This document shows positions 7,567-32,834 of a stretch of 64,000 nucleotides of DNA, one piece after another. The first letter of the stretch is position 1. Each line of letters opens with the position of its first letter. Source of the stretch: Candidatus Parcubacteria bacterium (GTDB taxonomy: Bacteria > Patescibacteriota > Patescibacteriia > Patescibacteriales > UBA12075); contig CAWFCE010000002.1 in NCBI GenBank assembly GCA_963814275.1, positions 298,537-362,536 on the forward strand, in the 5' to 3' direction. The notes below the pieces were generated by a model. It did not search any database. It had not been told where the DNA came from and worked only from the letters and a program-made list of their open reading frames with translations. A program made the position numbers and the translations under genes.

Positions 7567-8334
7567 CTAAGGGTGAGTTTGCGGGTTTAAACGCATAAAA
7601 ATATCGCCATTTTCCTGAAAATCAATTTTATTTATTATCTCAATAAACTTATTTATCTCCAGCCAGTCTTCCTGCTTGAATTCCGGGGAATCAGTGGCCA
7701 CGAAATTAAACCGGTAATCGCCAAGTTTGGAAATCAAATGGAGACAATCGAGCGTATCCGTTTTTGCCGCTGAATTGAATTCGATTGACATCAGGGGCAG
7801 GGGCGCGCTTAATCCGCTTAAGACCTGGTATTCGAAATTCTCCACGTCGATCTTAATGTAGTCCGGCCGGCCGAATTCCTTTATCAATTCATCGAGAGTT
7901 GTTATCGGTACTGTGATGGATTTTCGCCAAAGTTCTTTCTTAAAGCCGGTTTCTTTGTGTTTGGCGGAAAAAGTCGATACGGTTGGCCGGTTGTGGCAGA
8001 TGAAGAAAGGCAGCTCTCCCGGCCGATTGCCCACCCCCTTTTTTACTATTATGACTTTTGTGTCATTCCTAAATCTGTCAGCGAGGCGGCTCGCGACTTG
8101 CGGGTTTGGCTCTACGGCCACAACCTTTTTCGCCAATTGCCGGAAGATATCGGTATGGTCGCCGAGATGGGCGCCGACATCGAATACCAAAAAATCTTCG
8201 GCAAGTATTTGGCCGTATAACAACCGTAGCCTTTTTTCTGAATGGTCGAATAATTTCTTGTATATCGGACGTAAAAGATAGATAACTTGTTCCGGCAAAA
8301 AACGATTGATATAGAATAAGAATTTTTTCATCAT
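7567..8334 (-). CDS. FkbM-family SAM-dependent methyltransferase
   Basis: VFDVGAHLGDHT (SAM-binding loop), VVAVEPNP and IKIDVENFEYQVLSG match the FkbM family pattern. Confidence 0.75.
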   Translation of the reverse strand: MMKKFLFYINRFLPEQVIYLLRPIYKKLFDHSEKRLRLLYGQILAEDFLVFDVGAHLGDHTDIFRQLAKKVVAVEPNPQVASRLADRFRNDTKVIIVKKGVGNRPGELPFFICHNRPTVSTFSAKHKETGFKKELWRKSITVPITTLDELIKEFGRPDYIKIDVENFEYQVLSGLSAPLPLMSIEFNSAAKTDTLDCLHLISKLGDYRFNFVATDSPEFKQEDWLEINKFIEIINKIDFQENGDIFMRLNPQTHP

Positions 8335-8353
8335 CCGGTTTGTTTTAAGTTAT

Positions 8354-9265
8354 TCAATTGATTTTATCGAGCCAAGTCGCTTCCCGGCCATAGCCTTGTT
8401 CTTGCATCAGCGAGCCGCAGTGCTTGTTCAATATTTTCGCCCTATCCGCCCCCCAATCGTTCCACTTCGGAATGACATCAAAGGGGGCGGGGTGTATTCG
8501 CCGTTTAAGCATATCTTCAGCCAAGTTTTTTTGGCTGGACGTCAGGGGGAGATTAAGCAAAAATTCAGCCATTTGGACCAGTGTTTGCGGCATCTGTTCG
8601 CTATTGATAATATCTTCGAATCGGTACAAGCGTACATGGGGATTTTGTTTGACAGCATCCAGGGCATAGCGGTTGATATAATTCCACGACCAGGCCAGCT
8701 TCTCGAAATTATCGTATTTTTTCCAGGCCGCCAGATGCGCCCGGTCATTGACCATTTTCGGTGTCGGCCGGTTGCCCAGCCAGACATTGATATCCCGCGG
8801 ATCGAAAAAATTCTTTTTATTCATCCATGACCGGACCCAGTCGCGGGGGTCGCGGATGATATAGGCCGCCCGGCAGTTAGCGAAAGCCAGCGGCAGGACA
8901 TCCAGCAGGCCGTAATAATGGTAGCTGCTTTCGACATATAAGCGGCCGGGCAGAGAATTGACGAATCTGTTCCGCACCTTGACCAATCTGGCAGCGGCTT
9001 CTTCAGCCGTTATTTTTTTTGCCAGCCTGAGGTTGGAAATATATTCGATATCACGCCGGCCGATCAGCTTTTTCAGGACTGCGCCGGCCAACCCATAAAG
9101 CCGGATCGCCTGCCAGGTTTTTTTCGTAAACAAAGTATTGCGGTCGATCATACCAGGTTCGTGCAGGACCGTATCGCCAGGCGCCAACGCCCGGAACAGG
9201 GCGGTCATGAACGTCGTACCGGTCCGGCCGAGGGACGTGATGATGATGCTGGTTTTTTCGATCAT
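8354..9265 (-). CDS. Sulfotransferase family protein
   Basis: A 5'-PSB-like loop (SLGRTGTTFM) and a 3'-PB-like motif (IIRDPRDWVRSW) are characteristic of PAPS-dependent sulfotransferases. Confidence 0.65.
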   Translation of the reverse strand: MIEKTSIIITSLGRTGTTFMTALFRALAPGDTVLHEPGMIDRNTLFTKKTWQAIRLYGLAGAVLKKLIGRRDIEYISNLRLAKKITAEEAAARLVKVRNRFVNSLPGRLYVESSYHYYGLLDVLPLAFANCRAAYIIRDPRDWVRSWMNKKNFFDPRDINVWLGNRPTPKMVNDRAHLAAWKKYDNFEKLAWSWNYINRYALDAVKQNPHVRLYRFEDIINSEQMPQTLVQMAEFLLNLPLTSSQKNLAEDMLKRRIHPAPFDVIPKWNDWGADRAKILNKHCGSLMQEQGYGREATWLDKIN

Positions 9266-9317
9266 ATTTTCAGGTATTATTTTGTTAGCACCGGTTGGTT
9301 GCGCGCAGTAGCCAATT

Positions 9318-10304
9318 TTATTCTGGTTCGTTCCCCTCTTTCGAGCGGTTTTTATGCGTTAGCCAGGGAATTATAAAAATGACTGAGATTATCGGTAGCC
9401 AGGCCAGGGTGCTTACGCGGTCGACCAAAGCGACCAGCGCGGCCTGGTCGACATTCCCGGCAGTGAAGCCGGCCGTTATGGCCATGGCTGCTTCGCGGAT
9501 GCCGATGGCCGCCGGTGTGAAGGTAACGAAAGACGCGATATTACCTGCCGCCCCGATCGTGGCGGCGGTCAGGAACGAAATACCGCCGTAAAAAATGTGA
9601 TACAAATACCAGAGTTTGGCGGCAAATACCAGGTTGGCGGCGATAGCATACGCCATGACCGGCATGAACAGACCGCGCCGGCGGAACGATTGCCACTGTC
9701 CATGCAGTTCGTACATTATTTTTTTTGCTACCGGCGGTAATAATACGGCGGGAAAGCAGATCGCGGCCAGGGCCGCGCCGGCGGCGCAAATCATGGCTCC
9801 CAATAGCCATAAATTCACATGGGAGAACCGCCAGGCAATAAGCAGCAGGGCAGTAATACCGACGAGGGCGGCGCCGAGCACAGCCGCTATGATCACGAAT
9901 ACCGAAAGCATGACGAACAGGCGATAACTCAGCGCGTAGCGTTTTTTGAGATAAACCCCCCTGAATACGGGGCCGCTTTTTATCAGGATATGGTTCATCA
10001 GGCGGTTCAATGCCGCCAGTCCCAGCCAGTCCGGAACCGACAAGCGGAAACCGAGCGAACGGAGAGCGACCATAAAAACCGAAGCGTTCAGGACCAGATT
10101 GATGATCGTGAGCACTGAAATGATCAGGATGTTCACGGGACTCAATTTTGTCAGGATCACGAAATCCTCACCATGACGGTAGATATATACGGCTAACGCC
10201 GCCAATGCCGCCAGAGTGAAGGCGATCTTCCCGGCCAGCCGGTATTTTTCGAATTTTCCGGCAGCGCGATCGCCGTTATTCATTTTTTCGCTGACGTTCG
10301 TCAT
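9318..10304 (-). CDS. Polytopic membrane protein, LPG-synthase-TM / flippase-like (UPF0104-like)
   Basis: 328 aa with ~8 predicted TM helices and an overall pattern resembling the lysylphosphatidylglycerol-synthase TM/flippase-like family. A 4-nt overlap with the upstream GT gene suggests translational coupling. Confidence 0.5.
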   Translation of the reverse strand: MTNVSEKMNNGDRAAGKFEKYRLAGKIAFTLAALAALAVYIYRHGEDFVILTKLSPVNILIISVLTIINLVLNASVFMVALRSLGFRLSVPDWLGLAALNRLMNHILIKSGPVFRGVYLKKRYALSYRLFVMLSVFVIIAAVLGAALVGITALLLIAWRFSHVNLWLLGAMICAAGAALAAICFPAVLLPPVAKKIMYELHGQWQSFRRRGLFMPVMAYAIAANLVFAAKLWYLYHIFYGGISFLTAATIGAAGNIASFVTFTPAAIGIREAAMAITAGFTAGNVDQAALVALVDRVSTLAWLPIISVIFIIPWLTHKNRSKEGNEPE

Positions 10305-11449
10305 ATGAGAGTATCGTATAATCGCCGGTGGGCCGCAGCCGCCCGGGACCAGGAATATTTTTCCTTGTATTCATTCAGTTTACGCGTCAGTTCCAGGCAG
10401 GCGGTTTTGTCGCTCAGGGCGAAGGACAGTTTGCCGGCCAGGTCGCCGCTATCGCCCGGCCGGGCGATAAAGCGGCGGTCACCGATTATTTCCGCCAGGT
10501 CGCCGACAGCCGTCACCACCATCGGACGGGTAAGCGCTAATGCTGTTTTGACCAGTCCGCTTGAAGCGTCAAAACGGCGATAGGGCAGGACGACTACATC
10601 CGCGACCGTTAACAACCGGGCGATTTCTTCTGCCGGAATATAGTATAGCTTTTTAACGATATACGGAGCCAGATCCAGTTCGTCAATTATTCCCTGGTAA
10701 ATATCCCAGCTACCCCATACCGTGCCGGCGATGATCAGTCGGGAAGAGGGATCATTCTTGATTACTTGGGACCAGGCCTTGAGCAGGACATCCAGGCCCT
10801 TGTAGGGGCGGATACTGCCGAAAAAAAGACAATATGTTTTAGACGGATCGAGCGCCAGTTTGTCCATGATCTCGGCGCGCGATCCGGTGATGGGCGGCAG
10901 TTGGCTGTCATATACACCGATGGGAATAACCGCCACGTCATCAGTTTTTATCCGGTATAGAGAGATTGCCTGACTTTTGTTCTGTTCGTTGTGGACGATG
11001 ATTTTATCGCACATCCTGACCAGGACACCCGTTAATATCGCGCCCAGGCCTCTTTGCTCGTGCGGCGTGACATTGTGGAGCGTCAGGATGGCCGGCCGCT
11101 TTTTTGTGAACCGGTTTACCAAGAGTATAGTAAAATAGACCGGGAACAGGATATGGGTCCACCATTGCAGATGGATGATATCGCCGGTAGCGGTCAGGGC
11201 GGCATCTAACCAGGAAAACGGATTGTACCAGGCCAATATCCGTTTTTCTACGCAGTTGCCGCTATCGTAGCGGCAATTTTTTCTTTCTTCATCGATCGCG
11301 CCCCCGGGGTAAAGCCATTCGGGATAAAGATTTTTGAAATTGACCAGCTCGAGCGGCAGATCGTTCGCGGCCAGTGAACGGGTGAGATGGTCGCTGTAGA
11401 CGCTGATGCTTTTTTGCGGATAAAACGCGGAAATTAATGTGACTTTCAT
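10301..11449 (-). CDS. Glycosyltransferase, GT4 (GT-B fold)
   Basis: 382 aa with the C-terminal GT1/GT4 signature ...ADVVVLPYRRFDASSGLVKTALALTRPMVVTAVGDLAEII. Confidence 0.75.
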   Translation of the reverse strand: MKVTLISAFYPQKSISVYSDHLTRSLAANDLPLELVNFKNLYPEWLYPGGAIDEERKNCRYDSGNCVEKRILAWYNPFSWLDAALTATGDIIHLQWWTHILFPVYFTILLVNRFTKKRPAILTLHNVTPHEQRGLGAILTGVLVRMCDKIIVHNEQNKSQAISLYRIKTDDVAVIPIGVYDSQLPPITGSRAEIMDKLALDPSKTYCLFFGSIRPYKGLDVLLKAWSQVIKNDPSSRLIIAGTVWGSWDIYQGIIDELDLAPYIVKKLYYIPAEEIARLLTVADVVVLPYRRFDASSGLVKTALALTRPMVVTAVGDLAEIIGDRRFIARPGDSGDLAGKLSFALSDKTACLELTRKLNEYKEKYSWSRAAAAHRRLYDTLI

Positions 11450-11456
11450 AGGTTTG

Positions 11457-13988
11457 TCAGTTTATCCGGTAGATCATATAGATACCGTCATCATAAACTA
11501 AATCCGTTTTAGTATCGAGAAATTTGCGGAAGGCATCGAGATCATCGTAGATACTGGGGCCCGCGCCCTCATATTGCCGGCGGTAGTCCGCCAGGCTGAT
11601 CCCTTTTATCTCCGGCCAATATTCGAACATGGTGTACATGTAGGAATGGACGATATACTTTATGTTATTTTTTTTCAGTAATTCATAATAATAATCGTTG
11701 CCATTTCGCAGGGCATAACCGGCTATCCCCAGATATGGATCGACATTAACCACCGTTTCTTGCGGGTTATCTATATAGGCCGCGCGGAAATCGCCGACGA
11801 CAATCGCTTTACCGCCCGAATCGGCGATCCGTCTGTTGAGATCTTCGGCCGCTTTGGCGAACGGGACAAAGCGGTAAAGGGCGTTATTGTCAGTTTCACT
11901 GCGCAAGAGGAACGGCAGATTGCCGTACACCGTAATATTCGTGATGAAGACCAGCGCCATTACCGGCAAATAAATTCGCGCCAGGGAGGGGAAGCGGACG
12001 AATAATACGGAAGCGAGCAGATATAGGATAATAAGCAGGGGGTAGAGATACCAAATTCCGCCGAAGCTGACTTTCTGCCAGGCGGCCAGGGCGACAATTA
12101 CGGCGGGCAGGATGATCATCAGCGCCCGGTATTTTCTCACGAAAAATAACAGGGGAATAATCACGATCAAGCCGAGAAAACCGGCATCATGCGAAGGCAC
12201 GTCGAATATCCGGTAGCCGATCGACTGATGCCAGAGAGCGCGCAGAATGGTAAGAGGGTTTTTGCCGGTCGCGGGATAGTCCAGTTTGAGCTGCATAACT
12301 TCTTCTCCGCGCATTCGTTGGTAGCCGGGCAAGCCGCTATCGTTCAAGTAGCCGCCGGTAGCGCCGGGCAAGCCGAAGATCTTTTGCGGATAAAGCGGAT
12401 TGGCGAAAACAACCGTGTTTTTTATCGCCCAAGGTGAAAATGCGGCCAGGGCAAGGACAACGGCAACGGCCAGGGAAATGATTGTTTGACGCCACTGTGA
12501 ACGCCTTCTGGCCAGGGCGGCAATCGCAAAAGACGCCAGTAACACTGCGGCAAAAGGGATGGCGGTATATTTGATGCCGACGGCAATGCCCGTGAACAAT
12601 CCGGCCAGATAGAGATATTTCTTGTCGAATGTGTCCAGCCAGAGCCATAAGAGCAGAAGGATATGCAGCAAATACAAAGCCAGCCACAAATCGACTTTGG
12701 CGGTATGAATGAAGTAAATGTTTATCGGGATGAATAAAACCGTTGCCAGGGCTATCAGGGCATGCTGCCGGCCGAAAAATCTGTCGGCAATCGCGAATAC
12801 GCTTAAAATAATCAGGAAAAACGCCAGCCAGGAATGAAGCATTACGAGCGGAGGGCCGCCAGCCAGAATGGCGATCGAATAAAGCATTTCGACGTTCTGT
12901 CCCATGTTGGCGTGGCCGTAATAACCGAGCGGGATATATCCGCCCTGGCCGACATACGCCATTGGGGCGGCAAAATAAGTATTCAGACTGTCGGCATCAG
13001 CCGGCGCGGGCCAGTAGCTGGTAACGAAAAAAAGCGAAGCGAAGAACAGCGTCAATATGGCTATTGCCGCGAGCCAGGCCCGGCCAGGCGTATCGTATTC
13101 CATCGTCAATATCGTTTGGACAGGCTGTTTGTATATTTTTTTCAAATAAGGCCAGCTGCACGCCAGGATCAGGAGGGCGAGGACGGTTATCGCCGCCGCG
13201 TTCAGCCAGCCGCCTAAGGCCAGAAAAAAAGTGCCCAGCATAAACGGAATCAGACCGATCGTAATCGAAATCAAACCGGTCGCGAGGCTGCGGTCCGGGG
13301 CCAGCCCGAGCCGGTCGAGTAATTGACGGCCAAAAATATGGGTTACTGCGAGCAGGACAACAAAATACAAGGCAGCCATTATAAGCCGTTGCCAAAGCGA
13401 GATAGCCGAAAAAATTACCGATGAGTCGATCACAAATATAGAGGAAAGCGGATTGGCCGGCAAATAGGCCAGCAAAGCGGTTGCCGTCAAAATGACAGCG
13501 AAGCCCAACGTGAACTTCCATAAACCGCGCCGGCACAGCCGGACCAAAAAAAGAATAGCGATAAGTAGCGACAGAGACGCGATGATATTCGGAATGGTTT
13601 CCGGCCGGCCGATCAATTTTTCCGGGTTGCCGGCCAGCCCCGAGATCTTGGCGGTTATTGCCAAAAACCAGCTCAAAAACACGAAGACAAAAATTATATC
13701 AGCCTGGTTCAGTTCGATCACCCGGACATTTACGAGCCGCGCTATCGCTTTGCGTATGTCGGCAAAATCGAACCGGTATAACGGACCCTTGCGAAGCAGA
13801 ATGACAAAGATAACAGGGAATATAAAAAAGCAGGCAATCGCTAAAGGGAATAGATACCGATGGTTATAGCAATACAAAAACATGGGTACAAAGACCCATA
13901 TCATTAAGAGCGCCGTTTCCCAGTGCTGGCGCAGGAAAGATTCTGTCTTTTTCGGCGTGTTATTCATCGGTCCCGCCATTTTCATCAT
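11457..13988 (-). CDS. Large polytopic GT-C-like glycosyltransferase (ArnT/PMT-like) with a C-terminal soluble domain
   Basis: 843 aa with more than 15 hydrophobic helices followed by a ~170-aa soluble tail. It is embedded between polyprenol-phosphate-sugar-type GT2 genes. The family assignment is an inference from architecture. Confidence 0.5.
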   Translation of the reverse strand: MMKMAGPMNNTPKKTESFLRQHWETALLMIWVFVPMFLYCYNHRYLFPLAIACFFIFPVIFVILLRKGPLYRFDFADIRKAIARLVNVRVIELNQADIIFVFVFLSWFLAITAKISGLAGNPEKLIGRPETIPNIIASLSLLIAILFLVRLCRRGLWKFTLGFAVILTATALLAYLPANPLSSIFVIDSSVIFSAISLWQRLIMAALYFVVLLAVTHIFGRQLLDRLGLAPDRSLATGLISITIGLIPFMLGTFFLALGGWLNAAAITVLALLILACSWPYLKKIYKQPVQTILTMEYDTPGRAWLAAIAILTLFFASLFFVTSYWPAPADADSLNTYFAAPMAYVGQGGYIPLGYYGHANMGQNVEMLYSIAILAGGPPLVMLHSWLAFFLIILSVFAIADRFFGRQHALIALATVLFIPINIYFIHTAKVDLWLALYLLHILLLLWLWLDTFDKKYLYLAGLFTGIAVGIKYTAIPFAAVLLASFAIAALARRRSQWRQTIISLAVAVVLALAAFSPWAIKNTVVFANPLYPQKIFGLPGATGGYLNDSGLPGYQRMRGEEVMQLKLDYPATGKNPLTILRALWHQSIGYRIFDVPSHDAGFLGLIVIIPLLFFVRKYRALMIILPAVIVALAAWQKVSFGGIWYLYPLLIILYLLASVLFVRFPSLARIYLPVMALVFITNITVYGNLPFLLRSETDNNALYRFVPFAKAAEDLNRRIADSGGKAIVVGDFRAAYIDNPQETVVNVDPYLGIAGYALRNGNDYYYELLKKNNIKYIVHSYMYTMFEYWPEIKGISLADYRRQYEGAGPSIYDDLDAFRKFLDTKTDLVYDDGIYMIYRIN

Positions 13989-14922
13989 ATTGCCGTTTTT
14001 TTAATAACAAAAGGATTTCTTCATTCAATTTCCGGTTGCGGGCGATCAGATCGCCCAAAAGGCCGAGTATTATCGTAAAAAATCCCATCAAGATGAGGAT
14101 AGCCGACAGGATAAGCGACTGGATGCGGCTGCCGCCGGCGCCGGCGAGCGATAAATAGATATGCCTGAGCCCAAGCAAGATGCCGGGAAACATAATAAGA
14201 AGGCCGAAATAAAAAAGCGTTTTTAGCGGCTTATACATTAGTACCGACCGGATGATCGTGGACGAAGATTTTTTTATGTGAGTAAACAGATTGTTGATCA
14301 GGCGCGATGATCTATCGGGGCGCGGCCTAACCGTTATCGGCATGTTGGCAATGGCCAAATTCTTGTATATCGCCTGGATGATCGTTTCGTGGGTGTAGGT
14401 ATAGCCGGAATTTATATTGAGCTGCATTGCCAGCGAACGTGAAAAGGCGCGGAAACCGCAGGAAAAATCGTTGATTTCCGACCCGGTAAGACGCTTCAGG
14501 ATCCAATCGCCGAATAGATTGCCGTATCTGTTTCCCCAGGGCATTTCTTTCCGGTTCCTGACCTGGCGGTCGCCGACTACGAGATCAGCCCGGCGGCGGA
14601 TGATCGGTTCGATCAAACGCGGGATCTCGTTGGCGTCGAACTGGTTGTCGCCGTCGATATTGACGATAATTTCGCCGCCGCCCAGGAGAGCGGCATCCAG
14701 GCCGCGGGAAAAGGTCTTGGCCAGGCCCATGTTCCTGCCACTTGATATCACTTTGTCTGCCCCGGCAGACGCGGCAGCTTTTGCCGTGTTATCTTTCGAA
14801 CCGTCGTCCAGAACGTACACTTCGGTCTGGCTTATGCCCGGGGTCTGCCGCGGGATGGACCGGACGACCGCCCCGATCGTCCGCTCTTCATTATAAGCGG
14901 GTATGATAACGATTAGCTTCAT
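13960..14922 (-). CDS. GT2 glycosyltransferase, polyprenol-phosphate sugar synthase-like with C-terminal TM helices
   Basis: IIPAYNEERTI, LDDGSKDNT and NIDGDNQFD (DXD) are present, with two C-terminal TM helices as in DPM1/GtrB-like enzymes. Confidence 0.8.
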   Translation of the reverse strand: MKLIVIIPAYNEERTIGAVVRSIPRQTPGISQTEVYVLDDGSKDNTAKAAASAGADKVISSGRNMGLAKTFSRGLDAALLGGGEIIVNIDGDNQFDANEIPRLIEPIIRRRADLVVGDRQVRNRKEMPWGNRYGNLFGDWILKRLTGSEINDFSCGFRAFSRSLAMQLNINSGYTYTHETIIQAIYKNLAIANMPITVRPRPDRSSRLINNLFTHIKKSSSTIIRSVLMYKPLKTLFYFGLLIMFPGILLGLRHIYLSLAGAGGSRIQSLILSAILILMGFFTIILGLLGDLIARNRKLNEEILLLLKKRQYDENGGTDE

Positions 14923-14962
14923 ATAATCTTGATTTCCTAATTTCTAATATCTGGTTTCTGCA

Positions 14963-15721
14963 TCAAGCATCATTTTGTTCTGCTGTCTTCTTGTCTATTT
15001 TGTAACGCCCGCGCACACGGTTAAGAAAAATACCGAGAACTTCACGCAGAGTGACAAAATATCCGCTAAGACCGACCCGGCTGACCGGCCCGTTGGTCCA
15101 GCGGACCGGAATGATGGCGATTCGGTAGCCGGCCGATCTGGCCAGCATCAATATCTCGGCATCGATCGCCCAGCGGTCCAATGTCGTATGAGGGAGAAGC
15201 GTGGCAGCAGCTTGGGCGCTCAGTACTTTGAAGCCGCATTGAGTGTCCCAAATACCTTTGACCGAAAGCGCCTGGAAGATCAGGTTGCCAACTTTACCGA
15301 AAGCCCGCTTCCACCGGGCCTGGGACCTTACTATCCTGCTCCCGGCGGCATCACGAGGATGGCGGCTGCCGATAACGATATCGGCATTGTTTCTGAAATG
15401 CGGCCAGACCGAATCCAAATGGTCGATGGTCGTGGCGTTATCGGCGTCTATAAACAGACGAAAGTCGCCACCGGCCTGGAGCAATCCGGTGCGGATAGCT
15501 GCGCCCTTGCCTCGGTTTGATTCATGCTCGACTAATTTTATCATCGGAAATTTCGCCGCCAGTTCCCGCGCGGTATTTCCTGTCCGGTCGGTCGAGCCGT
15601 CATTAACGATTATTATTTCATAGGCATAATTTTGCCTATCCAGGTATTCGCGGAAGCGGCCGATGGTTTGTTCCAGGCTTTTTTCTTCATTATAGGCGGG
15701 AATGATAATTGACAACTGCAT
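14963..15721 (-). CDS. GT2 glycosyltransferase (dolichyl/polyprenyl-phosphate beta-glucosyltransferase-like)
   Basis: IIPAYNEEKSL, VNDGSTDRT, NRGKGAAIRTG and IDADNAT are classic GT2 motifs. Confidence 0.8.
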   Translation of the reverse strand: MQLSIIIPAYNEEKSLEQTIGRFREYLDRQNYAYEIIIVNDGSTDRTGNTARELAAKFPMIKLVEHESNRGKGAAIRTGLLQAGGDFRLFIDADNATTIDHLDSVWPHFRNNADIVIGSRHPRDAAGSRIVRSQARWKRAFGKVGNLIFQALSVKGIWDTQCGFKVLSAQAAATLLPHTTLDRWAIDAEILMLARSAGYRIAIIPVRWTNGPVSRVGLSGYFVTLREVLGIFLNRVRGRYKIDKKTAEQNDA

Positions 15722-15858
15722 AATCGAGATAAATAGCTTAAAATTTGGCGGCTCTATATCTAATTATATTTTATCCAATTTTAAATAAATATTCCATACT
15801 TCTCGGTTTTCTCGAAACGGCAGGATCACCAGGCAAAAGGTCCGATACGGGCAATATA

Positions 15859-17485
15859 TTATTCCGATGCTAAACGGTGATAGACCACGCTGTAGTCATC
15901 GGCATAAGCCAATTCCCAATCGGCGGCATCATCCAGTATATTGTAGATTGTTTTATCCATTTCGTTATCCGCGTCGCTTGGATTATTCGCATAGCCGAAT
16001 AATAAGCGTTCGTACCAGCGGTATGTTTGCGGGTGTTGCGCCGGCAGCAATGCCAGGCCGATATTGAATTGGTCCATTTTGTCCAATGTCAGTTCGGGAT
16101 CGTAAAATTCGAAATATTCTTCCAGAAAAGTATGCCCGGCGTAAGGGTATTGCGGAAAGCGCCCATCGATGAAAATTTGTTTTTCCGGCCAATTCCATAC
16201 CAAGTAGCCGCCCCAGGCATATGAGTTGAATATATTATTTTTAGCCAGGTCAGGATTTTGTTTTATAAATTCCAAGGCGGAGCAGGGGTATTGGCGGCAG
16301 AATTTCGGCGAAACGAAAGGGTTATTGGTAAAGTCGGTTTTCAATATTTGTGTTGACATCGCTAATAATAAGCCGAGTGTGACGTAAATTCTGATAAATG
16401 TGTTGTTAACGATGAATTGTTTGATTTTTTCCGGCACTTCGAATATCGCATCAGCCGCCAGGGTCAATGCCGGAAAGGAAACGATGAAAAAAAGCGGAAA
16501 ATGGCGGCGGGATTTTATGGCCAGGGCCATAAAAAAAGAGGGAAAGGAAAAATTGCCAAGGGGGTAATTTTTTCAAACTCGGACTGGATCTTAGTGAGAG
16601 GAAATAAAGGCCGAACAAGGAGGCGGCGACAGCCAGAAGTATGGTTTGATGGATGAAAACAGGATGAGCCCAAGCCGGCAGCCACTCATTGATATGTTTC
16701 AGATAATAAGAATTGCCATAATCGGTTAGAAATGAGTATAACTTGTAATTATAAGGCGTCAAAAAGGTGGCGCCGACAGACAATACGAAGACGGTAATCA
16801 CGCGCCTGAAATCCTGCCGGCTAAGCGGCTGGTCCTTCTGGAAATAAGCGGGCCAGTGCCAGCGGGCAGTCAAAGGAAATATCAGCTTGAAAGAAAGCCA
16901 AAGCGGAATAATGAAGAGGCCGATGAGAAAACTCCCATGCAAATTCGCCCAAATCGCGAAAAGCGGTATCAGCCAAAGCAAGGTCATAGGCTGCCTTTTC
17001 CGGTCAAAAGCTTCAATGATCATAACAACCAGCAGCAGGAATAAAATCGCCAGTTCCTGCAGTCTGACGCCCAGGCTGGGCAGAGAAGCGTACATACCGG
17101 ATAACAATAGTATTGCAATCAAAATCCGGGGATTTCGCGGACTAAAAAATTTCAAAGTAAAACGATGCAGCAGAGCCAGGGTCAAAACAACCAGTAAGGC
17201 AAAAATTATATTGAGACCCGCATATCCCACGCTATCATACAGCCAATAGATAGTAGCGTTAAACAGCCATTCGTGATCGACCCATTCCGCCCCGTTTAAG
17301 GGAAAATTATAATAATCAAGGTGCGGAACGGATCTGTCCGTTAATATTTGCTTGCCTACCGCAATGTGCCAACCGAAATCAGGGTCTAAATAAGAAAAAG
17401 AGTTTTTAGCTAATATTAAAAATAAAAATAAATAAAAAAAGACTATAATCAGCTTATATTGCCAGTGTTTTTTATCCATAGCCAC
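15859..17485 (-). pseudogene. Polytopic membrane protein (possible GT-C-like) split into two overlapping ORFs by one extra base in an A7/T7 run
   Basis: ORFs 16451..17485 and 15859..16530 overlap by 80 nt in different frames. Removing one T from the T7 run (plus A7 at 16531-16537) joins them: ...FLSLFF + MALAIKSRRHFPLFFIVSFPALTL.... The corrected length is 1626 nt, or 542 codons. Confidence 0.6.
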
Positions 17486-17569
17486 AGTGTTTTTATGAAT
17501 CGAGTAGACTTACGCAAAATTTACTATGTAATAAATACTATCATATTTAAAAAAGGCTGGCTATAAAAT

Positions 17570-17598
17570 TTGTTAGTAGGGTGAAAATTTGGTATAAT
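17570..17598 (+). promoter_or_regulatory. Sigma70-type promoter for the first pilin gene
   Basis: TTGTTA (17570-75), a 17-nt spacer, then the extended -10 TGgTATAAT (17590-98). It lies ~110 nt upstream of the SD sequence (agggggtg) and the ATG at 17709. Confidence 0.55.
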
Positions 17599-17708
17599 AA
17601 AATAAATGTTAATAACTTGCCCAGGCAATCGAAAGATGGCCTCAAACTAAGTATCTTATAGAACGATAAAGATATTAATTTTTAATACAACTAGAAAGGG
17701 GGTGAAAT

Positions 17709-18101
17709 ATGAAAAAGATTTTTTTCAATCTCACCATTTCTCTGGTATTATCCGTTTTTATCCTATCTTTGGCGGCCATGCCTTTGCTGGCAGCGACTGA
17801 CGCTAATATCGGATTGAATTACGCGCAAAACTTCGGCTTGAAGTCACAGAATGGCGATGTCCGGGAAGTTGCCGTGAGCATTGTCCGCTATTTGATGACT
17901 TTTCTGGGGATTATCGCGACAGTAGTAATCCTTTTGGGCGGCTTCCGCTGGATGACAGCGGCCGGCAATGAGGATAAAGTGGCTGAAGCCAAGAAGCTTC
18001 TGGTAGCCGGTGTCGTCGGTTTGATCATTATTTTAGCGGCCTTTGCAATCGTTACCTTCGTGGTCGGCATTACCAATAACGCCATAACCGGGAAGTTCTA
18101 G
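17709..18101 (+). CDS. VirB2/TrbC-like two-helix pilin-like protein, paralog 1
   Basis: Signal peptide (LSLAAMPLLAA), then LNYAQNFGLKSQNGDVREVAVSIVRYLMTFLGIIA-TM1-GGFRWMTAAGNEDKVAEAKK-TM2. The two TM helices around a short charged loop match the VirB2/TrbC architecture. A strong SD precedes the start. Confidence 0.8.
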   Translation: MKKIFFNLTISLVLSVFILSLAAMPLLAATDANIGLNYAQNFGLKSQNGDVREVAVSIVRYLMTFLGIIATVVILLGGFRWMTAAGNEDKVAEAKKLLVAGVVGLIIILAAFAIVTFVVGITNNAITGKF

Positions 18102-18250
18102 TTTTTTCAAACTGAAAAACTCGGTTTATAAAAGTCCGATTACCCGATATCTGGCGAGAGGATGAACCTGCTCGCAGCGGCGCATCGGAAATGGCTGGCA
18201 CATGAGTGACCAGTTTATATACATATAATTCAAAGTAAACATCTAAAATT

Positions 18251-18634
18251 ATGAAAAAAATTTATCTAAAATCGTTAATGTTCGTATTGATGTTCTCAAT
18301 GCTGACTTTGGCGGCCATGCCGGTTCTGGCAGCTGAAGCCGACCTCGGCTTGAATTACGCCATGAATTTCGGCCTCCAGGCGCAGAATGGCGATGTCCGC
18401 GATGTTGCCGTTAGCATCGTTCGTTATCTGATGACCTTCCTCGGTATTATCGCCGTTATCATTATCTTGATCGGCGGTTTCCGCTGGATGACCGCAGCCG
18501 GCAACGAGGATAAAGTAGCCAGCGCCAAGAAAACGATAATCGCCGGTGCAATCGGTCTGGTTATTGTAATTGCCGCGTTCGCTATCGTTACCTTCGTGGT
18601 GCAGTTTACCAATAACGCCTTGTTTACCAGTTAA
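18251..18634 (+). CDS. VirB2/TrbC-like pilin-like protein, paralog 2
   Basis: Same architecture, with GGFRWMTAAGNEDKVASAKK. It is closely related to paralogs 1, 3 and 4 at the protein level, with many synonymous DNA differences. Confidence 0.8.
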   Translation: MKKIYLKSLMFVLMFSMLTLAAMPVLAAEADLGLNYAMNFGLQAQNGDVRDVAVSIVRYLMTFLGIIAVIIILIGGFRWMTAAGNEDKVASAKKTIIAGAIGLVIVIAAFAIVTFVVQFTNNALFTS

Positions 18635-18690
18635 TTATCCTTAGGATATTAGGAGGCGCTAAATAAAATTTTAGCGTAAATAATAATTTT

Positions 18691-19074
18691 ATGAAGTATA
18701 AGCAACGATTAGCTATAAGTTTTGTGCTTATCTTATCGAGCATTTGCGTTATCGCCATGCCTGTTCTGGCAGCCGATCTTGATTTGGGCATGAACTACGC
18801 CCTGAATTTCGGCCTCCAGGCGCAGAACGGCGATGTGCGCGATGTTGCGGTTACCATTGTCCGTTATTTGATGACATTCCTGGGAATAATCGCGGTAATT
18901 ATAATATTATACGGTGGTTTTCTCTGGATGACGGCTGCCGGTAACGAGGATAAAGTAGGCCGCGCGAAACGTATTATTATCGCCGGCGCGATCGGTCTGG
19001 TAGTAATCATCGCTGCCTTCGCTATCGTCACATTCGTTATTCAGTTCACTAACAACGCCCTGTTTACCGCATAA
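18691..19074 (+). CDS. VirB2/TrbC-like pilin-like protein, paralog 3
   Basis: Signal peptide, then LNFGLQAQNGDVRDVAVTIVRYLMTFLGIIA and GGFLWMTAAGNEDKVGRAKR. Confidence 0.8.
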   Translation: MKYKQRLAISFVLILSSICVIAMPVLAADLDLGMNYALNFGLQAQNGDVRDVAVTIVRYLMTFLGIIAVIIILYGGFLWMTAAGNEDKVGRAKRIIIAGAIGLVVIIAAFAIVTFVIQFTNNALFTA

Positions 19075-19131
19075 CGAATTATCCGGCAATACCCATTCTA
19101 ACGCTTGTCTGGGAGACAAGCCGATCTATAT

Positions 19132-19527
19132 ATGGCAATCAAAAGAAAATACAATATTGCCATGACAATATGCGCTATTATTGTCTTATTGGTGACATTC
19201 GCTAAGGTCGTTCCCGTCCATGCGATCGATATCGGTCTTGATTATGCCAAGAATATCGATTTGCCGGAAGCGGGCGATGAGGATATCCGTACTACCGCTG
19301 TCAATATTATCAAATACCTGATAACATTTTTGGGTATCATTGCGGTGGGGATAATGCTCTATGGCGGTTTTATCTGGATGACGGCTGCCGGCAATGACGA
19401 TCGAGTCGGTCGGGCTAAGCGGATTATAATTGCCGGTGCGATCGGCCTGATCGTAATTCTGGCCTCTTACGCTATCGTAAATTTTGTATTCCAGATAGCG
19501 CAAAATGCAATTAATGGAGATATATGA
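19132..19527 (+). CDS. VirB2/TrbC-like pilin-like protein, paralog 4
   Basis: The track ORF begins at a TTG (19105). The ATG at 19132 (MAIKRKYNIAMTICAIIVLL) is more plausible. Core motif GGFIWMTAAGNDDRVGRAKR. Confidence 0.75.
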   Translation: MAIKRKYNIAMTICAIIVLLVTFAKVVPVHAIDIGLDYAKNIDLPEAGDEDIRTTAVNIIKYLITFLGIIAVGIMLYGGFIWMTAAGNDDRVGRAKRIIIAGAIGLIVILASYAIVNFVFQIAQNAINGDI

Positions 19528-19616
19528 TACGTCGGGGGGCCGGTTTCCGGCCCCCTGTCTGGATCTTTCGGCCGTACCTGAATAAAAATACAAAATCTTG
19601 TGATATATAGGCAAAT

Positions 19617-20054
19617 ATGAAAACAAGGGCAACAAAAACAAAAAAAATACAATATAAAGTTACAATGACAGTAGCCGTATTGGCTATTTTTATTTTTGGA
19701 CTAAGCGCCATATGTCCTGTTTTGGCTGGTTCGGGCGTAGATAATGCGATCGGCGGGCTCAAAAAATCCGGCAGCTGGGCTTACGATAATGCTGATGGGA
19801 CTAGTGATCCCAAAAGTGTTGCCACCGATCTCCCCTCGGCCATCGGTAAGGTGGTAGGCGCGATCCTGGCTTTTATCGGCGTATTATTTCTGATCCTGAT
19901 AATTTACGGCGGTTTTACCTGGATGGTTGCGCGCGGCAATGAATCGGAAGTCACCCGGGCCAAAGACATGATTCAGGCAGCTGTTATCGGCTTGGTCATA
20001 GTTCTGGCTGCGTACGCGATCACCACATATGTGGGAAGCATAATTAGCGGTTAA
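19617..20054 (+). CDS. VirB2/TrbC-like pilin-like protein, paralog 5
   Basis: Signal/TM segment, a divergent ectodomain, then the core IYGGFTWMVARGNESEVTRAKD followed by TM2. Confidence 0.75.
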   Translation: MKTRATKTKKIQYKVTMTVAVLAIFIFGLSAICPVLAGSGVDNAIGGLKKSGSWAYDNADGTSDPKSVATDLPSAIGKVVGAILAFIGVLFLILIIYGGFTWMVARGNESEVTRAKDMIQAAVIGLVIVLAAYAITTYVGSIISG

Positions 20055-20127
20055 TTGCGGGATAAAGCAGTATTTATAAAGAATGTACAAAAAATAACAT
20101 TTCATAATTAAATCAAAATTTTAATTT

Positions 20128-20553
20128 GTGAAAAGCGTTTTAAGCAAAAGACGAATTAGATATATATATTTTACGATATTGGGATATTTATTGATTTATG
20201 CGCCGTATGTTTCGGCGGATACTGCTGCCGACCGGTTCAAGAGCTCAGCCGAGGCGACTGCCCGCGCTACCGGGCATTTGACTGCGAGTGGCGGGGGTAA
20301 GGGGATATTTTCCGCCAAAACGCTTCCCGAAGCGATTGGAGTAGTAATCAGTATTATACTGTCCATACTGGGAGTCCTCTTTCTGGGATTGATCGTATAC
20401 GGCGGATATCTCTGGATGATCGACCGGGGAGAACAGAAAGAAGCCCAAAAGGCGCGCAGTATCATAATTAATTCAGTGATCGGCCTGTTCATCGTTCTGG
20501 CCGCTTACGTGATTACGGATTTTCTGATCACAAACGTATTCAAATCGATTTAA
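20128..20553 (+). CDS. VirB2/TrbC-like pilin-like protein, paralog 6
   Basis: GTG start. Core VYGGYLWMIDRGEQKEAQKARS flanked by two hydrophobic helices. Confidence 0.7.
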   Translation: MKSVLSKRRIRYIYFTILGYLLIYAPYVSADTAADRFKSSAEATARATGHLTASGGGKGIFSAKTLPEAIGVVISIILSILGVLFLGLIVYGGYLWMIDRGEQKEAQKARSIIINSVIGLFIVLAAYVITDFLITNVFKSI

Positions 20554-20562
20554 GAGATAAAT

Positions 20563-20949
20563 ATGGCCAAAAAACTGATTAGTCTTATAGTGTTGCTCGC
20601 GGTATTTTCGGTCTTTTGCCTGCCGGCCTATGCCGGAAATTTGTCCGATGCCTGGACAAACGCCAAAACCGCGGCCGACAGCGCCGGATATAGTACCAGT
20701 AATACCAGCATCGACTCGGTAGTCGCTTTGGTGATAAATATAGCTTTGTCCATTTTGGGCGTGATTTTCGTGGGCCTTATGGTATACGGTGGTTTTCTCT
20801 GGATGACCGACCGGGGAAATGAGGACCAGGTCAAGCGGGCCCGCAACCTGATCTCGGCAGCCATTATCGGCCTCATTATCGTCGCTTCGGCCTACGCTAT
20901 CAGTATATTCGTTCTGACCCGGATAACCGAGAAAACGCTTGCCAAGTAA
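20563..20949 (+). CDS. VirB2/TrbC-like pilin-like protein, paralog 7
   Basis: Core VYGGFLWMTDRGNEDQVKRARN. It starts 9 nt after the previous stop. Confidence 0.75.
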   Translation: MAKKLISLIVLLAVFSVFCLPAYAGNLSDAWTNAKTAADSAGYSTSNTSIDSVVALVINIALSILGVIFVGLMVYGGFLWMTDRGNEDQVKRARNLISAAIIGLIIVASAYAISIFVLTRITEKTLAK

Positions 20950-21048
20950 TCGAGGTATATTGTCGCGTTTAAAATCCTCATAAATATTGCTTTTAATGTT
21001 ACTGTGTAGTAAAGTTAAAACTGGAAATAAAATAACGGCATTAAAATT

Positions 21049-21423
21049 GTGAAAAAATTCATTACTCAAATATTTATTTTGCTCGGACTGGTATTTGTCC
21101 TGCTTTTGCCTTATTTCGTTTTTGCGGCCGCGCCGAATCCGGTCAAACGGCTTAATGACATGCAGCCCGCCACCGGCTATGCCGCGGCTACGGAATATTC
21201 AATCGCGGAGATCGTCGGCTATATTGTCAATTCGGTCGTGGTCATCCTGGGGATGATCTTTACCGGACTGATTGTCTATGCCGGCTACAATTGGATGACC
21301 GCCGCCGGCGACGAGGGCAAGGTGCGCAAAGCCGGGGACACGATCCGCCAGGCAATCATCGGCCTGATAATTTTAGCTGGATCTTGGGCGATATATTTAT
21401 TTATTTTTGACCAGCTCATTTAA
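21049..21423 (+). CDS. VirB2/TrbC-like pilin-like protein, paralog 8
   Basis: GTG start. Core VYAGYNWMTAAGDEGKVRKAGD. Confidence 0.7.
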   Translation: MKKFITQIFILLGLVFVLLLPYFVFAAAPNPVKRLNDMQPATGYAAATEYSIAEIVGYIVNSVVVILGMIFTGLIVYAGYNWMTAAGDEGKVRKAGDTIRQAIIGLIILAGSWAIYLFIFDQLI

Positions 21424-21425
21424 GT

Positions 21426-21821
21426 ATGCCAAAAGTAATAAAAAACCTATATTATTTTTTAATTGCACTTTTGCTGCTTATTCCTGTAGATAGGTGTCTG
21501 GCTTTATCGTTAATAACGTCTGACGGAGCGGAGGGCATGAAGACTTATGAAGAAAAATTCCGTGGAGCGGCCGGGTTTAGTAGTGAAACAAGTATTGAAT
21601 GGATAGTCAGAGCGGTGATTGAAGGTTTTTTAATATTATTGAGTTTGATATTCATAATTTTGATAATTATTGCCGGCTACAACTGGATGACCGCAGCTGG
21701 TGAAGAGAATAAAGTAACGAAGGCGAAAGACACGATTAGGAGGGCGATCATTGGTTTGATAATTATTATTGCCGCCTATGGGATAACATATTTCGTCTTT
21801 AACATTTTACCTTGGGGCTAA
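21426..21821 (+). CDS. VirB2/TrbC-like pilin-like protein, paralog 9
   Basis: Starts 2 nt after paralog 8's stop. Core IIAGYNWMTAAGEENKVTKAKD. Confidence 0.75.
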   Translation: MPKVIKNLYYFLIALLLLIPVDRCLALSLITSDGAEGMKTYEEKFRGAAGFSSETSIEWIVRAVIEGFLILLSLIFIILIIIAGYNWMTAAGEENKVTKAKDTIRRAIIGLIIIIAAYGITYFVFNILPWG

Positions 21822-21851
21822 TAATTGTTAGTTAGAGAATAAAATAAAAAC

Positions 21852-21890
21852 AAGGCATTGAGTCGATCCGTCTAACTCAATGCCTTTTTA
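21852..21890. terminator. Bidirectional hairpin terminator closing the pilin array
   Basis: A 12-bp stem aaggcattgagt / actcaatgcctt (21852-63 / 21875-86) has a T-run after it on plus and an A-run before it. It lies between convergent genes. Confidence 0.7.
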
Positions 21891-21893
21891 AAT

Positions 21894-22271
21894 TCAGTGG
21901 CAGCGGCCATGCTTGCACCGCATTTGATAACTGTTACCCCAGGGGTCGGTTGAATAGTTTGTGGTAACCGTATCCCCTTGCCCGGTCTCGCTTCTCATTA
22001 TACCCCCAAATATATCAGGAGTATTATGAAACTTATTCGGGTCAGCAGTATATTCTTCTACCAACCCCGCTTTCGCATTAATGAAATGTCCCTCAGCGGC
22101 ATCTTTGTACGCCCGGGTAACAATACGGGGATCAGTTGAAAATATGCCGATGCTCTTGTTATTATAAATTGGCTTTCCTGTTGCCGGATCAGGAATTGAA
22201 ATATTGGTAAGGTTTGCGCAAGCCGCAAAAATTAAAACTATTAAAAGAACACTGAATCTGCATAATTTCAT
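21894..22271 (-). CDS. Small putative lipoprotein, unknown function
   Basis: The signal peptide carries a lipobox-like LIFAAC. The protein is 125 aa, and I recognise no domain. Confidence 0.5.
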   Translation of the reverse strand: MKLCRFSVLLIVLIFAACANLTNISIPDPATGKPIYNNKSIGIFSTDPRIVTRAYKDAAEGHFINAKAGLVEEYTADPNKFHNTPDIFGGIMRSETGQGDTVTTNYSTDPWGNSYQMRCKHGRCH

Positions 22272-22502
22272 TTTGAACCTCCTTTATCGAATGTTGTTAC
22301 TTTTATTGTTAATTAATTAGAATAAATTCTATAAATAAAATACTGTGGTGAATAGTTTAAAGTTACATAATACAAAATTTTATCATATTTTACCCTTTCT
22401 GTCAAGGTTGACGTGGACTTAAAACTATGATAAGATAAAGATATAGTAAGAAAATCCCTATGTGCACACCGTGCATGTGTAGGGATTTTTATTTAGAAAA
22501 AT

Positions 22503-23042
22503 ATGGCAACGCTTAAATATAAGGAAAAAAAGGTATTTTCCATAAAATTAGCCAAAAAAATTATTTTTTCGCTAATTATTGTGCTTATATTCGATTTTTT
22601 CCTATTCCCGGCTCCGACTTTGGCTGCCGCGCCGGTCGAATCCGGGGAAGAAGTAATTATCGATGGACCGGTAAATATTGAGCCAGAAGTGATGGATATT
22701 GTTAATAATTTGCCGGAAAACTCTGACCTGGAAGTGCTTCATACCAGTTATCATACGATTACCGCCTATAGTTCGGAAGTCAGCCAATGTGACGGCAACC
22801 CCTGCGTGACAGCTAACGGTTTTAACCTGTGTGAACATGGTATTGAAGATTCGATAGCGGCCAACTGGCTGAAATTCGGCACTAAGGTCAAAATACCTGA
22901 GCTTTACGGCGACCGGGTATTTGTGGTACGTGACCGTATGAACAGTAAATATGACAATAGAGTCGATATTTGGATGAAGGAGAAGGCGGATGCGAAGAAT
23001 TTCGGTATCCGCGTGGCTAAAATCGAGGTTTTAGACCACTAA
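22503..23042 (+). CDS. 3D-domain protein (MltA/RlpA-like barrel; putative peptidoglycan lytic transglycosylase), membrane anchored
   Basis: N-terminal TM helix, then HTITAYSSEVSQCDGNPCVTANGF...IAANWLKFGTKVKIPELYGDRVFVVRDRMNSKYDNRVDIWM. This matches the 3D-domain pattern (T.Y..., tA.G, vA.., GT.v.i, v.D.g, .iDi). Confidence 0.7.
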   Translation: MATLKYKEKKVFSIKLAKKIIFSLIIVLIFDFFLFPAPTLAAAPVESGEEVIIDGPVNIEPEVMDIVNNLPENSDLEVLHTSYHTITAYSSEVSQCDGNPCVTANGFNLCEHGIEDSIAANWLKFGTKVKIPELYGDRVFVVRDRMNSKYDNRVDIWMKEKADAKNFGIRVAKIEVLDH

Positions 23043-23070: not shown

Positions 23071-23096
23071 ATCAGCCTTCACGGGCTGATTTTTTA
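23071..23096 (+). terminator. Rho-independent terminator after the 3D-domain gene
   Basis: atcagcc-ttcacg-ggctgat followed by TTTTTT. Confidence 0.7.
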
Positions 23097-29733: not shown

Positions 29734-29750
29734 AAAAAATAGGCGTTATT

Positions 29751-31199: not shown

Positions 31200-31365
31200 A
31201 AGGTGGCTAATTTAGCCGAATTTTGGTATAATTATATTATGTTTTCTGCTGTTTGTTTGCTGCTTACTGTTTATTAAATCTTTTAAAGTATCTTGTGTAG
31301 CGAATAATCAGCAAATATTTTAGTATATCCGATAACAAGTTTGATTTAATTATAACATAATTTTT

Positions 31366-31776: not shown

Positions 31777-31825
31777 CGCAATTTTATTTTCGGGAATATT
31801 ATGTATTTTGGAATTTGGACGGCAT

Positions 31826-32833: not shown

Positions 32834-32834
32834 T

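Follow-up and report, generated by a model that had tools for sequence, protein, structure and literature searches.

A GT2 and GT-C glycosyltransferase pair accompanies VirB2-like pilin arrays in Patescibacteria and may modify the pilins

We studied a 64,000-nucleotide stretch of the genome of a Candidatus Parcubacteria bacterium (contig CAWFCE010000002.1, positions 298,537 to 362,536), here called the window, in which an array of VirB2-like pilin genes is read divergently from a block of glycosyltransferase (GT) genes. An earlier account made from the letters alone (the sequence-only reading) had proposed that these genes specify a glycosylated pilin-like surface structure. That interpretation is supported in part. 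The partner conserved with the array is a pair of genes encoding a soluble GT2 enzyme (GT2b) and a polytopic membrane protein of GT-C fold (MEM), and not the 843-amino-acid (aa) GT-C enzyme, the sulfotransferase or the Wzy_C protein also encoded in the window. The new observation is this pair of a GT2 and an unnamed GT-C tracking VirB2-like arrays; the arrays themselves have already been described (PMC12102498). The gene association suggests, without proof, that the pilins are sugar-coated. We lean, a little beyond even chances, to the view that the locus joins a Patescibacteria pilin array to a glycosylation module in which MEM glycosylates the pilins.

The array occupies 17709-21821 on the plus strand. 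As had been read from the sequence, it is an array of pilins, and all nine of its open reading frames (ORFs) score above the gathering cut-off of the Pfam model PF18895 (T4SS_pilin). They lie at 17709-18101, 18251-18634, 18691-19074, 19105-19527, 19617-20054, 20128-20553, 20563-20949, 21049-21423 and 21426-21821. Their alignment displays the architecture of VirB2/TrbC-type pilins, with a signal peptide, two transmembrane (TM) helices and a conserved GGFxWMTAAGNEDKV loop. The nine are diverged paralogues, 22-76% identical in protein and at most about 83% identical in DNA, and this divergence at the DNA level rules out an assembly artefact. The array is thus a typical member of those described in Patescibacteria (441 arrays of 2-11 genes in 383 assemblies, their paralogues being of low identity; Quinonero-Coronel et al. 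2025, PMC12102498), with the difference that virB4 is not near it within the 64 kb. VirB4, VirB6 and VirD4 were absent from a Pfam scan of the larger ORFs of the window, and machinery of the type IV secretion system (T4SS) was not noted among the clustered gene families of window-like loci; another part of the genome may encode it. A divergent intergenic region (17486-17708) separates MEM from the first pilin gene. It holds a sigma-70-like site on the plus strand (17570-17598, TTGTTA-17-TATAAT with TG) and weaker promoter-like sites on the minus strand (17623-17594 and 17567-17540), all of them consensus matches only.

MEM (15859-17485, minus strand), a GT-C-fold glycosyltransferase of about 530 aa when intact, is identified by its fold and by alignment with homologues. 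A frameshift splits it here into two ORFs, 16451-17485 and 15859-16530, and the earlier call of a frameshifted polytopic membrane protein stood up to comparison: in a tblastn alignment an intact 533-aa homologue (P0009) covers both halves end to end, in frame +1 and then +2, at 40-45% identity and with no other defect. The break is a T7 run near 16532-16538 with one extra T. Deleting one T restores ...FFLSLFFMALAIKSRRHFPLFF..., in agreement with the family consensus. A sequencing error could account for the frameshift, as could a recent inactivation or a slippage switch. MEM has no Pfam or NCBIfam match, none of three intact homologues matches Pfam at E <= 0.1, and the remote members have no match either. 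Nevertheless the family is very large: a profile search at E <= 1e-3 collected 38,533 clusters (at 50% identity), of which 15,561 still match at E <= 1e-30, all without a name and without a Pfam-A or NCBIfam model.

The second member of the pair, GT2b (14963-15721, minus strand), is a soluble enzyme resembling dolichol-phosphate-mannose synthase (DPMS) and GtrB. It matches Pfam Glycos_transf_2 (E 1e-32), and its best matches in the PDB are the Pyrococcus DPMS 5mlz (E 7e-18) and then GtrB 5ekp. It is presumably a polyprenyl-phosphate-sugar synthase feeding MEM.

The 843-aa GT-C enzyme of the window was unusable as a synteny anchor, so conservation was sampled from three others: the pilin, MEM and a 3D-domain protein encoded downstream of the array. 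For the pilin, a profile scan of genome contigs with the window pilin alignment yielded 80 loci (loci are given below by L numbers), whose ORFs were compared by phmmer and by all-against-all clustering. These hold 71 arrays of at least three genes, 58 with enough upstream and 54 with enough downstream flank to be counted. The window genes that recur in them are GT2b, MEM (intact elsewhere, at about 530 aa) and the 3D protein. MEM stands within 3 kb upstream of 20 of the 58 arrays, and in these 20 pilin-centred loci the GT2 and GT-C pair adjoins the array.

From the side of MEM the association is tighter. A metagenome scan with the MEM alignment gave 80 loci, and the tally was limited to those with at least 1.5 kb on both sides. 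Among the close homologues (at least 32% identity), 22 of 24 lie no more than 1.5 kb from a pilin and have three or more pilins within 6 kb, and the proposed link between pilin array and glycosylation genes is thus borne out from both anchors. Of the 24, 18 have a GT2 no further than 3 kb from MEM; in the window this is the DPMS/GtrB-like GT2b, which hints that MEM may use a polyprenyl-phosphate-linked sugar as donor. Two further close homologues, which were looked up individually (L082, L083), show GT2 and MEM divergent from six or seven PF18895 genes. The arrangement varies from locus to locus. MEM may be divergent from the array, embedded in a co-directional array (L132-L134), placed with GT2 after the array (L148) or convergent with it (L143, L146), and this variety argues against inherited synteny alone. 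The flanks of the module also differ: upstream there may be PBP1a, YraN with a methyltransferase and a RodZ-like gene, or the glycan block of the window, and downstream PpdK-Lgt or DksA/TraR-LspA-TsaE-L19. By a rough estimate, a random gene in a genome of about 1 Mb with a few such arrays would be this close to one in only a few per cent of cases.

Pfam, NCBIfam and PDB sequence searches were all unusable for placing MEM, and only structure prediction followed by Foldseek was informative. The AlphaFold2 model of the intact homologue P0009 has a pLDDT (predicted local distance difference test score) of 93.9 and a pTM (predicted template modelling score) of 0.93, and the modelled chain forms about 11 TM helices and ends in a globular domain. 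In a Foldseek search of the PDB the best match is DPY19 (E 2e-6), followed by STT3 from yeast, human and dog (template modelling score 0.60), AglB and PglB; ArnT comes below about 18 protein-modifying GT-C matches, and Emb, AftB and PMT are much weaker. The matches to DPY19, STT3, AglB, PglB and ArnT have a Foldseek probability of 1.00 and query-normalised template modelling scores of 0.44-0.60. The isolated AglB C-terminal domain (3vu0) also matches the MEM model. As judged by these superpositions of a predicted model, MEM is a protein of GT-C fold.

The conserved residues point the same way. Across 71 homologues, a SYLDPDFGWH motif after the first TM helix keeps D31 and D33 in at least 90% of sequences and H37 in all of them, and R138, W176, H180 and R328 are invariant. 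D31, D33, H37, R138, H180 and R328 fit a GT-C active site. MEM was also considered as an N-glycosylating oligosaccharyltransferase (OST) like STT3, AglB or PglB, and this was rejected because it has no STT3 family match and no WWDYG motif, the consensus in its C-terminal domain being WGGYLIW / WGGY(L/M). Membership of the DPY19 family was likewise set aside: there is no Dpy19 Pfam match, and Trp makes up only 0.3-0.4% of the pilin termini.

A second association comes from remote relatives. MEM homologues of 25-30% identity head Tad loci beside Flp pilin genes in L086, L084 and, by motif, L160. In L086 (Bradyrhizobium sp. ISRA443, CP094523, 6567-17503) a 28%-identical homologue has a GT87 gene on one side and three small ORFs on the other. 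The Flp processing motif (G/xxxxEY) and a Ser/Thr-rich C-terminus are present in at least the two shorter of these; in the 91-aa ORF the same mature sequence is preceded by an N-terminal extension, maybe the result of a start placed too early. Next come a prepilin peptidase and the Tad machinery. L084 (7675-17709) is organised alike, and in L160 motifs point to Flp-like ORFs and RcpC. Another remote homologue (L088) is found with GtrB-like GT2, GtrA and GT87 genes. Judging from these sequences, two MEM branches would separately have come to lie next to small helical pilins of two unrelated classes. We infer that the MEM family as a whole uses lipid-linked sugars. Our literature searches brought up nothing relevant on GT-C glycosylation of VirB2-type or Tad/Flp pilins, and term searches of PMC12102498 and PMC10633639 found no mention of glycosyltransferases flanking arrays.

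Taking these observations together, it is tempting to propose the following mechanism. The core of the module would be the array of PF18895 pilin paralogues and the divergently read GT2b and MEM genes, joined in this lineage by the 3D protein gene downstream. GT2b would load a sugar onto polyprenyl phosphate at the cytoplasmic face, and the lipid-linked sugar would then be flipped across the membrane. MEM, with its DxD...H loop after the first TM helix and its C-terminal globular domain both predicted to face outward, would pass the sugar to an extracytoplasmic acceptor. The outward orientation of the loop is deduced from the basic N-terminus. The sugar would most likely go to the pilin while it is still in the membrane and not yet polymerised, on a short segment exposed at its N- or C-terminus. 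Donor, acceptor and topology are all inferred.

Several observations weigh against glycosylation of the pilins by MEM. The acceptor is the weakest step, because its signature was not found: in the exposed pilin termini the density of NxS/T equals the compositional expectation, there is no enrichment of sequons or of WxxW, and Trp is rare. These termini are equally rich in Ser, Thr and Gly in arrays with and without MEM whose contexts are otherwise similar. No glycosylation has been described for any bacterial VirB2-type or conjugative pilus (PMC9905601). MEM is frameshifted in this genome, and the deposited annotation has the same break (P0008, 342 aa). The core pair comes with no recognisable flippase. 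The pilin-centred loci were ranked by similarity to the window pilin, so that their frequencies are biased towards relatives and are not a phylum-wide estimate, and even so 38 of the 58 have no MEM within 3 kb; related arrays lacking it include L009, L033 and L040. Finally, no pilin genes accompany several remote MEM homologues (L085, L087 and many other loci), and none of the small ORFs beside them is convincingly pilin-like; the wider family therefore probably has other substrates.

Known systems offer both likenesses and differences. In Pseudomonas aeruginosa Pa5196 the GT-C gene tfpW lies next to pilA, and TfpW arabinosylates the type IV pilin (bioRxiv 10.1101/2020.04.19.049825). MEM is likewise a polytopic GT-C protein encoded directly beside the pilin gene whose product it may modify, and a polyprenyl-phosphate-linked sugar used on the outer face of the membrane, as with TfpW, is proposed alike for MEM. 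However, the arrays here, of up to nine or more genes, encode T4SS pilins of the VirB2/TrbC type and not type IVa pilins; MEM belongs to no Pfam or NCBIfam family, is likened to TfpW by description and not by sequence, and its activity is a prediction. PilO/TfpO and PglL are pilin-modifying enzymes of the Wzy_C family encoded near pilins, and the window also encodes a Wzy_C protein; yet that gene is 26 kb off, its neighbourhood is not conserved with the array, and MEM, as a GT-C protein, belongs to a different superfamily. The pairing of a polyprenyl-phosphate GT2 with a GT-C enzyme is shared with GtrA/GtrB/GtrC, CsbB/GtcA/YfhO and ArnC/ArnEF/ArnT (PMC5836110, PMC11127046). Those three-component systems modify O-antigen, teichoic acids and lipid A, whereas GT2b and MEM are tied to pilin genes and lack a recognisable GtrA-type flippase. 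Dolichol-phosphate-mannose-dependent protein glycosylation by DPM synthase with DPY19 or PMT, together with the oligosaccharyltransferases STT3, AglB and PglB, provides the best structural matches of MEM (query-normalised template modelling score 0.5-0.6), and DPM synthase is the best solved relative of GT2b. The C-terminal globular domain of MEM resembles that of AglB (3vu0); nevertheless MEM is only 10-13% identical to DPY19/STT3-type enzymes, is predicted to have about 11 TM helices against their 13, and has no Pfam match. That the pair is a variant of the pilin-adjacent glycosylation systems of the TfpW/TfpO type is partly supported, the gene lying beside the pilins as in those systems.

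The strongest competing explanation is that GT2, MEM and the neighbouring glycan genes make a general envelope glycan (teichoic-acid-like, lipoglycan, S-layer glycan or the glycan of another surface glycoprotein), the pilins staying unmodified and the adjacency reflecting the clustering of envelope genes. We consider this rather unlikely, and it has several points in its favour. Three-component systems built on GT2 and GT-C usually modify envelope glycans (GtrABC, CsbB/YfhO, ArnC/ArnT; PMC5836110, PMC11127046), envelope genes such as PBP1a, Lgt, LspA and the 3D protein share the neighbourhoods, and the glycan block is poorly conserved beside arrays. The absence of an acceptor signature in the pilins and the many remote homologues with no nearby pilin would be explained too. 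Against it, a pilin array adjoins MEM in 22 of the 24 loci of close homologues, in varied arrangements and between varied flanks, the Flp association in Proteobacteria is independent, and the nearest folds are peptide-modifying enzymes, not glycan- or lipid-modifying ones.

The genes upstream of the pair bring in the larger module that the sequence-only reading had drawn, in which the whole of 7567-23042 acts as one: the 843-aa GT-C and/or the Wzy_C protein would glycosylate the pilins, a sulfotransferase and FkbM would decorate the glycan, and the 3D protein would be a VirB1-like hydrolase. We regard this as improbable. All the genes are indeed present and contiguous, and Pfam confirmed the identities given to the minus-strand block, including its two GT2 enzymes. 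Next to GT2b is GT2a (13960-14922), a polyprenyl-phosphate glycosyltransferase of the ArnC/GtrB type with a full-length match to ArnC structures (E 5e-16) and two C-terminal TM segments (232-253 and 264-295); its best NCBIfam match, AglJ, is below the cut-off of that model. The 843-aa GT-C (11457-13988; 842 aa in its database copy, which has a different start) is of the PMT_2/ArnT type by its Pfam PMT_2 match (PF13231, E 7e-11, 43 bits against a cut-off of 26.1) and its roughly 18 hydrophobic segments. A GT4 glycosyltransferase follows (10301-11449; Pfam Glycos_transf_1 and Glyco_trans_1_4), then a polytopic LPG_synthase_TM protein and possible flippase with six hydrophobic segments (9318-10304; PF03706, E 3e-13). 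The sulfotransferase (8354-9265) matches Sulfotransfer_1 modestly (28.1 bits against a cut-off of 22); its motifs GRTGTTF and RDPRDWVRS, assigned by eye, resemble the two loops (5'-PSB and 3'-PB) that bind 3'-phosphoadenosine-5'-phosphosulfate. The block ends with the FkbM-family methyltransferase (7567-8334; PF05050, E 1e-17; TIGR01444, E 1e-28), and all of these genes are on the minus strand. Together, GT2a, the LPG_synthase_TM protein and the 843-aa GT-C resemble another three-component set.

Most of this block is accessory, which speaks against counting a glycan/sulfation locus as part of the module. The 843-aa GT-C has no homologue above 34% identity besides itself among 5.8 billion proteins, and a profile scan of genome contigs found no orthologue. 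GT2a and an 843-like GT-C (27-30% identity) recur near an array in three other loci, in the order of the window in L003 and L109 and on the other side of the array in L097. A sulfotransferase (36% identity) and LPG_synthase_TM homologues recur near an array in L003 only, and no FkbM homologue was found beside arrays in the other fetched loci. In favour of the larger module, its order is repeated in L003 (Sulfo-LPG_TM-GT4-GT-C-GT2a-GT2b-MEM-pilins) and partly in L109 (MEM-GT2b-GT2a-GT-C). The role once assigned to the 843-aa GT-C or the Wzy_C protein would thus pass to the frameshifted MEM, the partner that is conserved. The cassette is variable, and it could extend or decorate the same glycan or serve a different envelope glycan.

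The downstream side of the larger module fares similarly. A small lipoprotein with the lipobox LIFAAC is encoded at 21894-22271. The lipoprotein call was right; the gene is on the minus strand and convergent with the array. It has no Pfam match and no homologue in any fetched locus, and is specific to this lineage. Beyond it, on the plus strand, lies the membrane-anchored 3D-domain protein (22503-23042, 179 aa), which has a double-psi beta-barrel (DPBB) of the YuiC/MltA type. It has no match to Pfam, including the Pfam 3D model, or in the PDB sequence search; the 3D call is nonetheless correct, because the predicted fold matches and three Asp residues (D116, D144, D155) are invariant among 42 homologues. 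Its AlphaFold2 model has an N-terminal helix (residues 14-34) and a pLDDT above 90 for most of the stretch 80-179, and Foldseek retrieves YuiC 4wlk (25-26% identity, root-mean-square deviation 2.3-2.8 A over about 91 residues), PA4485 and MltA. Going by this model, it is a probable lytic transglycosylase. Like YuiC of B. subtilis and MltA, it combines the DPBB/3D fold with three invariant Asp and a membrane anchor.

Whether this enzyme serves the pilus is another matter. Its gene is within 3 kb downstream of 18 of the 54 arrays, set against three different downstream contexts. Nevertheless, its 568 homologues are 50-65% identical across hundreds of Patescibacteria, several being named '3D domain-containing' by their sources, and it is a widespread Patescibacteria housekeeping gene that is array-adjacent in one lineage only. 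Three long-contig contexts centred on the 3D gene were available: L089 has an array and keeps the gene order of the window between GT2 and the second pilin, another contains just one pilin, and the third none. The opposite-strand lipoprotein gene separates the 3D gene from the array, and the gene has its own promoter-like site and is followed by a terminator-like hairpin (23071-23090, plus strand; 8-bp stem then T-run, a consensus match only), so that it appears to form a separate transcription unit. The link of the 3D gene to the array is therefore real in one lineage and weak evidence of function. Like VirB1, the 3D protein is encoded close to a pilus gene cluster, but it is not a homologue of VirB1 (SLT or CHAP) and is conserved across Patescibacteria regardless of adjacency to an array; most array-bearing Patescibacteria genomes are without VirB1 (PMC12102498). 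Of the hydrolase that had been suggested, then, the YuiC/MltA-like fold stands, and a dedicated VirB1-like role is unproven, because only one of the three contexts has the array.

Arrays of a second class show other neighbours. Upstream there are GalU (26 of 58, within 3 kb) and a solute-binding lipoprotein (24 of 58), and downstream either an MGDG-synthase-like GT28 (7 of 54, within 3 kb) or DUF2079 with a protein of family f29 and a GT2. Sugar-nucleotide and glycolipid genes thus flank arrays even where MEM is lacking. The f29 protein, which adjoins the GT2, is a remote MEM homologue (hhalign probability 93%, E 3e-7, 242 columns). Many arrays of this class (L010-L081; e.g. L015, L044, L059, L065, L079) are preceded by type IV pseudopilin-like genes (N_methyl). 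A polytopic ORF of about 460 aa with no Pfam match (f33) often lies between GT2 and MEM (L034, L054, L061, L069, L016, L008, L089) and is remotely related to f29 (hhalign probability 93.5%); it could be a second transferase or the missing flippase.

These neighbours bear on a last explanation, which we hold to be very improbable: VirB2-type pili being stoichiometric protein-lipid filaments, with one lipid per subunit in conjugative pili (PMC9905601), MEM and the GT28 of other arrays could act on the lipid partner and supply a glycolipid built into the filament, as the GT28 and GalU genes near arrays and the presence of the lipid-modifying ArnT among the structural matches would allow, but ArnT ranks under the protein-modifying enzymes. 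The Flp loci have MEM homologues as well, and Flp pili are not known to be lipid-containing.

Returning to glycosylation of the pilins by MEM, a broader version may be formulated, which we put forward tentatively and with the balance somewhat against it. The core role of the MEM family would be to glycosylate small membrane-embedded helical pilins, VirB2-like in Patescibacteria and Flp in Proteobacteria, and together with paralogue arrays and swappable cassettes this would give a combinatorial surface code. If true, this would be the first glycosylation system for conjugative-type pilins, and the code, with cassettes such as the second GT-C, the sulfotransferase and the methyltransferase, would let episymbiotic ultrasmall bacteria recognise or evade hosts. 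Few gene families of Patescibacteria are as abundant or as distinctive as the VirB2-like arrays, and in Southlakia, the one genetically tractable species, the pilin array is essential for epibiotic growth (PMC10633639). The pair that tracks these arrays is a concrete handle on pilin modification and a first functional context for a very large family that had no Pfam or NCBIfam model. The Flp association in culturable Proteobacteria (Bradyrhizobium) brings the hypothesis within an ordinary laboratory organism.

The window holds further pilin and glycan genes. A lone VirB2-like pilin (31366-31776, plus strand; PF18895, E 9e-9) is divergent from a Wzx flippase (29751-31199) paired with a GT4 (28609-29733), and genes for a GH42/GH10-like glycosidase and a ROK kinase come after it (region 28609-33855). 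This Wzx-GT4 and lone pilin form a second pilin/glycan pairing in the window. The arrangement is kept in L089 (14511-18534); L090 (1-2332) shows only the pilin-glycosidase-ROK part, since that locus starts at the pilin. An eleventh PF18895 pilin stands alone at 34363-34779 on the minus strand. The Wzy_C protein is present where it had been placed, at 47772-49352 on the plus strand, as an O-antigen ligase/polymerase-like membrane protein (PF04932, E 2e-16). Homologues occur 5-8 kb upstream of some other arrays (L017, L022, L055, L076). No evidence ties the Wzy_C gene of the window to this array, and from its sequence a PglL/PilO-type enzyme and an O-antigen ligase/polymerase are indistinguishable.

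The window itself is a chromosomal stretch of a Patescibacteria (Candidate Phyla Radiation) genome, with many housekeeping genes and ten tRNA genes, within a deposited source contig of 1.27 Mb; a glycan block identical to that of the window is present in run ERR11571143. The closest relatives in the pilin-alignment scan are metagenome-assembled genomes (MAGs) labelled Parcubacteria, Falkowbacteria and similar. The 16S rRNA gene (42486-44084, minus strand) is unlinked to the 23S gene, which starts at 60541 on the opposite strand; within 60541-64000, model positions 1-2813 are matched across 3460 nt, with about 650 nt of extra inserted sequence, and no ORF beyond 60782 reaches 100 aa. Five tRNA genes (Gly, Pro, Phe, Met, Ile) are tightly clustered at 41112-41823 (minus strand), transcriptionally downstream of the 16S gene. 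Tandem ORFs with a GIY-YIG nuclease domain (50231-50587, 118 aa; 50611-50943, 110 aa) lie just upstream of tRNA-Ser and tRNA-Arg, and close to the 23S gene is a PilT/T2SSE-type ATPase (58753-59850, plus strand). Dozens of MAGs with the title 'uncultured Gammaproteobacteria bacterium isolate binchicken/SRP...' (L003, L009, L011, L012 and others) show typical Patescibacteria arrays and synteny, and the Gammaproteobacteria label on those records looks wrong.

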